A stretch of 64,000 nucleotides of DNA from Escherichia coli (GTDB taxonomy: Bacteria > Pseudomonadota > Gammaproteobacteria > Enterobacterales > Enterobacteriaceae): the NCBI RefSeq assembly GCF_003334385.1, contig NZ_QOWN01000005.1. One strand, written 5' to 3'. Shown here piece by piece: positions 63,718-63,844 of this stretch; within the stretch, counting starts at the first letter, position 1, and each line of letters opens with the position of its first letter. The notes below the pieces were generated by a model. The model was not told the DNA's origin. It made no database searches and worked only from the letters and a program-made list of their open reading frames with translations. Both the position numbers and the translations under genes were made by a program.

Positions 63718-63844
63718 CCGTCGTCTTTCAGGCCGCAGCGGCGTTAGCTTCACGCCCTCACCCCAGTCACTTACTTATGTAAGCTCCTGGGGATTCTGGC
63801 GCTTGCTACCTTGCTGCACCCAGAAATCCATAGGGTATGTGAAG
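63718..63844. repeat. ERIC/IRU intergenic repeat upstream of lpd
   Basis: ccctcaccccagtcacttacttatgtaagctcctggggattc matches the ERIC core, with internal dyad ccccag...ctgggg. Confidence 0.65.

Follow-up and report, generated by a model that had tools for sequence, protein, structure and literature searches.

Catalogues of ERIC repeats in E. coli date back to 1990–91. The elements described in E. coli and Salmonella under the names ERIC, IRU and RU-1 (Sharples & Lloyd, 1990; Hulton et al., 1991; Wilson & Sharp, 2006) are transcribed, multi-copy, intergenic sequences bounded by terminal inverted repeats and drawn as a single long hairpin, and the full count in K-12 is given as 19–21 (PMC2267715). 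The family is an old MITE-like imperfect palindrome that is now apparently immobile. In Yersinia, ERICs alter how stable the cotranscribed mRNA is, depending on their orientation and via an RNase E site (De Gregorio et al., 2005, as described in the reviews PMC2229807, PMC3184786 and PMC10969869); the effect concerns elements located at the stop codon of the upstream gene or close to it, where ribosomes unmask the RNase E site. Neisserial Correia/NEMIS repeats and the REP/BIME elements of E. coli are likewise small transcribed intergenic palindromes that shape mRNA processing or stability, although they are unrelated in sequence to ERIC. RNase III cleaves Correia RNA where its inverted repeats are long and perfect, whereas the long hairpin of ERIC has many interruptions; REPs, unlike ERIC, are stabilisers of 35 nt at the 3' end.

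The window analysed here is a stretch of 64,000 nucleotides of an E. coli contig (NZ_QOWN01000005.1), the last 400 bases of which are 100% identical to K-12 derivatives such as DH1 and represent, in reverse orientation, the aceF-lpd intergenic region of MG1655. The lpd coding sequence (MSTEIKTQ... to ...NPKAKKK, then stop) occupies 62258–63682 of the minus strand, with its ATG at 63682–63680. The aceF-lpd intergenic region contains, at 63713–63839, a bona fide full-length ERIC/IRU repeat of 127 bp, an element of an already known kind. The original prediction had recognized an ERIC between these genes and had given its length correctly, but had placed it at 63718–63844, 5 bp too far to the right, a register that yields only 31/127 matches to the consensus. 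At 63713–63839 the ungapped alignment extends over the full 127 nt with 100/127 identities (79%) to the E. coli ERIC consensus printed in PMC2759123, Table 1a (Delihas, 2007, from Wilson & Sharp). The local alignment score to this consensus is 75, whereas 1000 shuffles average 8.3 and reach at most 15, and nhmmer detects the element with E = 5.8e-19, covering model positions 2–126. Both ends are fixed because the terminal inverted arms and the consensus alignment agree in placing the boundaries at 63713 and 63839, and the element maps to positions 356–482 of the corresponding locus, L001. In MG1655 coordinates (K-12 position = 191,594 − window position) it lies at 127,755–127,881, with an AB1157 match at 127755–127881. 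This copy is presumably among the ERICs already listed in catalogues. No repeat feature is listed at this site in the K-12 annotation NC_000913.3, and a literature search for an ERIC at aceF-lpd found nothing relevant. The lpd-leader ERIC is thus a real but ordinary member of the family described in 1990–91, and is not novel.

The plus strand of the window carries the element in the orientation of the printed consensus, and within the lpd mRNA it is transcribed from the minus strand. The terminal inverted repeat (I1) consists of two 27-nt arms that are 70% complementary, one nearest lpd at 63713–63739 (CATACCCGTCG...) and one furthest from it at 63813–63839 (...CATAGGGTATG); these form helices 1 and 2 of the family structure. 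Between them, a central core of 40 nt at 63757–63796 is identical to the consensus, is found at 100% identity elsewhere in the genome, and holds both PCR primer sites together with the apical hairpin formed by inverted repeat I2 (63761–63774 and 63779–63792). The primer cores on which the prediction had been based are indeed present: atgtaagctcctggggattc occurs exactly at 63777–63796, ERIC1R matches at 20/22 positions at 63777–63798 on the plus strand, and ERIC2 matches at 21/22 positions at 63755–63776 on the minus strand. A 35-nt core pattern allowing up to 3 mismatches occurs once in the window and in 0/100 shuffles; at this threshold the search overlooked a second ERIC in the window that was detected by nhmmer. 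In addition to its length, its terminal repeats and its consensus-identical core, the copy resembles the other E. coli and Salmonella elements in lying beside a highly expressed gene and in being present in a strain-dependent manner. It departs from the consensus in having termini CA...TG rather than TA...TA, a complementary pair of changes, and in that the internal AU-rich loops are partly replaced by paired, GC-richer sequence.

All 5426 complete E. coli genomes examined contain at least 2 places matched by ERIC in blastn, with a median of 9 and with 11 in K-12 AB1157, and nhmmer finds further copies in loci of Buttiauxella, Klebsiella, Kosakonia and Pseudescherichia. A family alignment (A2) of 13 sequences was assembled from the lpd copy, the second copy in the window, orthologues at the same locus, the two published references, and unrelated copies found in Buttiauxella, Pseudescherichia, Klebsiella, Kosakonia and an Enterobacter. 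RNAalifold folds all of them into a single long hairpin, and 21 of its 36 pairs carry compensatory changes. On this structure 94% of cells are paired, compared with 82% in shuffles (0/500 reach the observed value) and 32–44% in slid controls. The lpd-leader ERIC alone has a predicted minimum free energy of −66.3 kcal/mol (z = −7.7).

The pdhR-aceEF-lpd genes form a polycistronic operon, and the start of the internal lpd promoter lies 195 nt from the ATG (PMC2759082, Olvera et al., citing original mapping work). In the promoter scan the lone sigma-70-like site in 63500–64000 is an lpd-strand promoter at 63884–63912, with a −35 hexamer TTTAAA at 63912–63907, a 17-nt spacer and a −10 hexamer TAAAAT at 63889–63884, and this site is conserved across genera. 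The published distance and a position 7 nt 3' of the predicted −10 hexamer both indicate a transcription start site at 63877 on the minus strand. Because the ERIC begins 38 nt downstream of this site, it spans +39 to +165 of the 195-nt lpd 5' UTR, and 30 nt separate its end from the ATG; the distance of 35–160 bp upstream of lpd given originally is corrected to 31–157 nt upstream of the ATG. Further upstream, the intrinsic terminator hairpin of aceF, conserved across aligned loci, occupies 63979–64000 on the minus strand, is followed by a T-run and extends past the end of the window. The element is therefore intergenic and inside a transcription unit, 3' of the aceF terminator and between the lpd start site and ATG, and it is transcribed both from the lpd promoter and, as had been anticipated, in pdhR-aceEF-lpd read-through RNA. 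The other part of that expectation, that the element might overlap the lpd-specific promoter, does not hold, since both hexamers and the start site are upstream of the ERIC end at 63839; the ERIC, bounded by 63713 and 63839, sits in the lpd 5' UTR and not in the promoter.

The spacer between the −35 and −10 hexamers is filled by an 18-bp perfect palindrome, AAAATTGTTAACAATTTT, at 63891–63908, which is conserved across genera. Read together with the TGTAAA next to it, it looks similar to ArcA-type direct repeats, and we take it to fit the published ArcA site in the lpd promoter.

The ERIC is flanked in the leader by a second structural element. The 5' arm of a basal stem, CCCGGUGG in the RNA, lies at 63859–63866 on the minus strand and pairs with the 3' arm CCGCCGG at 63705–63711, 22 nt upstream of the ATG, in the predicted folds of both alleles described below. 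When the complete leader is folded, this pairing lengthens the ERIC helix, and in the allele lacking ERIC the same basal stem closes a 30-nt insert as a mini-hairpin. By a strict pattern the stem is found in 60 of 84 enterobacterial loci, and it is visible with small variations in most of the others; where present it lies about 20 nt before the ATG and encloses an apical segment of 23–186 nt. Where the stem varies, the change is on one side and keeps pairing possible (U-G to C-G or U-A). The basal stem is not part of the ERIC, and the ERIC allele is one of its apical variants. To our knowledge no function has been described for this stem-loop of the lpd leader. In a partition-function calculation the predicted probability that the Shine-Dalgarno sequence is unpaired is 0.72 with the ERIC and 0.75 without it, and occlusion of the ribosome binding site by the ERIC hairpin is ruled out by this near equality. 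The element appears to be tolerated because it is a self-contained apical replacement that leaves the Shine-Dalgarno sequence and the start codon equally accessible.

Among the 5426 complete E. coli genomes, the ERIC allele is present in 3433 (63%) and a short allele without it in 1992 (37%); the remaining genome has matches only at other ERIC copies, so that the two alleles account for all 5425 others. The allele-specific block, delimited by alignment A1 and the genome counts, is the 147 bp at 63712–63858 and comprises one base, the ERIC and a further 19 nt. In the short allele this block is replaced by 30 unrelated nucleotides, GTCTGACGTTTTTTTTATGACGCCCATTAT on the plus strand, which form a small hairpin. 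A simple insertion with TA duplication does not fit the two forms, since the alternative allele is a 147-for-30 bp replacement; unlike other ERIC sites, the locus thus offers no clean empty site for comparison in a check for a target-site duplication. The 19-nt segment peculiar to the ERIC allele (TGGTTAGGGTATTACTTCA in the lpd sense, 63840–63858, minus strand) includes ATACCCTA, a complement of the ERIC end beside it, and is present in Enterobacter sp. 10-1 with 37% divergence. A search for homology of the 30-mer or of the extra 19 nt to ERIC ends or to the ancestral apical hairpin gave only weak similarity (CGTCATA / ATGACG and GGG motifs). The occurrence of two leader alleles at these frequencies is relevant to engineering or modelling of lpd expression and to the reading of ERIC-PCR bands.

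The distal ERIC terminus is joined to the 19-nt segment by an 8-bp perfect inverted repeat (I4), TAGGGTAT / ATACCCTA, at 63831–63838 and 63847–63854. The motif AGGGTATTA is retained in Enterobacter sp. 10-1 despite the divergence of that segment. The repeat could be what is left of another ERIC terminus, or it could provide an alternative pairing.

Relatives of the short form are found in Citrobacter, Klebsiella, Atlantibacter and Franconibacter, and more distant ones in Salmonella. Because the short form is so widespread across genera it is presumably the older, ancestral state. The long form, with identical junctions and the 19 nt, is found in E. albertii, E. whittamii, Escherichia sp. E1V33, Enterobacter sp. 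10-1 and, as far as its truncated locus shows, Raoultella terrigena. The identity of the junctions in several Escherichia species, Enterobacter and Raoultella indicates that acquisition of the ERIC was old and single, and recent mobility at this site is ruled out by the same sharing of junctions across species and genera. This pattern agrees with the view of Wilson & Sharp, who reportedly found that E. coli ERICs vary between strains but show no recent mobility. The polymorphism has either persisted across species or been spread by homologous recombination. One metagenome scan with a non-E. coli junction, GACGGGTATGACCGCCGGATAC, returned no more diverged orthologues of the long allele. Two of the contigs in the set, labelled Martelella alba (an alphaproteobacterium; L047) and Chryseobacterium sp. 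18061 (L085), carry typical enterobacterial lpd genes and leaders, and the 110 nt of upstream sequence compared are the same in the latter as in Citrobacter sp. 18056 (L050); the two contigs probably come from mislabelled or contaminated assemblies.

The divergence of the long allele was compared between K-12 and Enterobacter sp. 10-1. The ERIC differs at 8/127 positions (6.3%), compared with 18% in the terminator-to-promoter spacer, 37% in the 19 nt adjoining ERIC, 20% in the leader around the ribosome binding site, 11% in the promoter and 17–26% at local third codon positions. By Fisher's test the difference is significant against local third positions (p = 5e-4) and against the spacer plus the extra segment (p = 9e-4). 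The part of the ERIC available from Raoultella shows 4 differences in 60 nt, compared with 26.6% at lpd third positions. All eight substitutions in Enterobacter sp. 10-1, read by eye on the A2 consensus structure, fall in unpaired columns or convert A-U to G-U or G-C to G-U, and those G-U pairs exist only in the lpd-sense RNA. Among the Escherichia copies, 2/5 substitutions at paired sites break a pair. Drawn from one informative lineage pair and the 60 nt of Raoultella, these observations are thinly suggestive of purifying selection on the lpd-leader ERIC; alternatively, the low divergence could have arisen because the allele was transferred more recently. Purifying selection, if confirmed, would provide one concrete case for the long-open question of ERIC function in E. 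coli. Comparison within Escherichia is uninformative on this point because the whole E. albertii intergenic region (L004) is near-identical to that of K-12, with about 1 difference in 330 positions (63683–64000). Third positions of lpd differ between the same two species by 12.6% overall and by 4.8% near the 5' end, which suggests a recombination tract or unusually strong constraint on the entire region, not one specific to the ERIC.

Taken as a whole, the account that combines ERIC identity, position in the lpd leader and a mechanism at the RNA level is one in which we have high confidence, the mechanism being its less certain part. On the mechanism we lean towards a real but modest role of the ERIC in the stability or processing of the lpd mRNA. 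The element would fold in the RNA as one long hairpin stacked on the pre-existing conserved basal stem, and would act as a structural leader module influencing the processing or lifetime of the message. RNase E acting from the 5' end is impeded by structured regions within a 5' UTR, and one possible route would be that the hairpin acts as a barrier to such access; another would be that it marks a point of processing at which lpd RNA is separated from that of aceEF. Neither promoter activity nor translation initiation would be affected, and an element exerting no effect on the RNA would be a neutral passenger. Several observations weigh against a role in the RNA. The absence of the element from 37% of E. 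coli genomes means that any function is dispensable or replaceable, the case for conservation consists of a single genus-level comparison and the short Raoultella segment, and two of the five paired-site substitutions in Escherichia disrupt pairing. Furthermore, the lpd copy is a member of the same family as the Yersinia elements and is likewise cotranscribed and predicted to form an RNA hairpin, but unlike them it lies about 260 nt past the aceF stop codon, in a 5' leader, and not at the end of the upstream gene where the Yersinia model applies.

That the element is a fossil insertion without effect on lpd expression, its frequency being a product of drift and recombination, we consider less probable, although the possibility deserves serious attention. 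The locus exists in two forms, with 1992/5426 genomes lacking the ERIC, predicted accessibility of the ribosome binding site is equal in both alleles, the apex of the leader stem ranges so widely in length among Enterobacterales that its content seems free to vary, and the ERIC harbors no promoter-like site. A relic of this kind is difficult to reconcile with an element whose divergence between K-12 and Enterobacter sp. 10-1 is a third to a sixth of that in the adjoining non-coding DNA, with substitutions that avoid or preserve pairs, and with the retention of the allele with identical junctions across several genera. An action of the palindrome as DNA, as a cruciform or as a binding site for a nucleoid protein or recombination function, is very unlikely. 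Either strand can be drawn as a palindrome, and pairing in DNA fits the compensatory changes equally well; nevertheless, the two pair-preserving substitutions in Enterobacter sp. 10-1 are G-U in the lpd-sense RNA and would be A-C mismatches on the other strand or in DNA, and reviews report no ERIC DNA motif beyond the terminal inverted repeats (PMC2229807). Less probable still, to the point of being barely credible, is that the lpd-specific promoter overlaps or includes the ERIC, which would thereby affect transcription initiation. Its location within 160 bp of the start codon, the usual promoter zone, raises only a prior expectation of this, whereas the hexamers at 63912–63884 and the start site at 63877 precede the element, the scan of 63713–63839 found no promoter-like site on either strand, and the same promoter is present unchanged in strains without the ERIC and conserved in genera that lack one here.

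The second full-length ERIC in the window is located in the rpsB-tsf spacer at 963–1089, 13 nt past the rpsB stop codon (nhmmer, 69.6 bits), and is likewise transcribed from the minus strand, so that both copies have the same orientation relative to their own mRNAs. Its termini are CTCCCCC...GGGGGAG, not TATACCC...GGGTATA. The small RNA CssrA (Rfam RF02798) matches at 908–1017 on the minus strand with 136 bits, above the gathering score, and consists of the 3' half of this ERIC and the downstream terminator hairpin; a catalogued sRNA therefore begins inside an ERIC hairpin. The lpd copy belongs to the same family and has the same orientation relative to transcription, and the rpsB-tsf example shows that a stable RNA species can start within such a hairpin, but the lpd copy differs from CssrA in having no downstream terminator hairpin and in running on into coding sequence. 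Identification of the lpd ERIC itself as CssrA was rejected, because its match at 63667–63767 (26.1 bits, E = 0.012) is far below the gathering threshold of 93 bits and reflects only the shared ERIC half; no other Rfam match was found on the lpd ERIC.

A more ambitious proposal is that the lpd-leader ERIC is a co-opted RNA module under selection, which would set the lifetime of the lpd mRNA or uncouple Lpd from AceE/AceF via a processing site, and which would constitute an ancient cross-genus polymorphism alternating with the short ancestral hairpin at the apex of the stem. We regard this proposal as doubtful. If it were true, the analogy with CssrA would predict that a 5' end generated by processing lies near 63767.

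Two minor observations concern the ends of the lpd reading frame. The lpd-proximal end of the ERIC (GGGTATG) supplies an in-frame ATG at 63713–63715 on the minus strand, 11 codons upstream of the lpd start, so that the longest lpd open reading frame, MTAGDKYIEVM-MSTEIK..., is 485 instead of 474 amino acids. This ATG is absent from the short allele, and in the ERIC allele it is buried in the basal helix of the element and has no obvious Shine-Dalgarno sequence; it could nevertheless mislead gene callers in assigning the start codon. At the other end of the gene, sub-threshold Rfam matches to AgrB (28.8 bits) and BASRCI414 at 62197–62267 on the minus strand adjoin the lpd stop codon and represent the lpd intrinsic terminator, a GC hairpin followed by a U-run, which resembles the terminator parts of those models.
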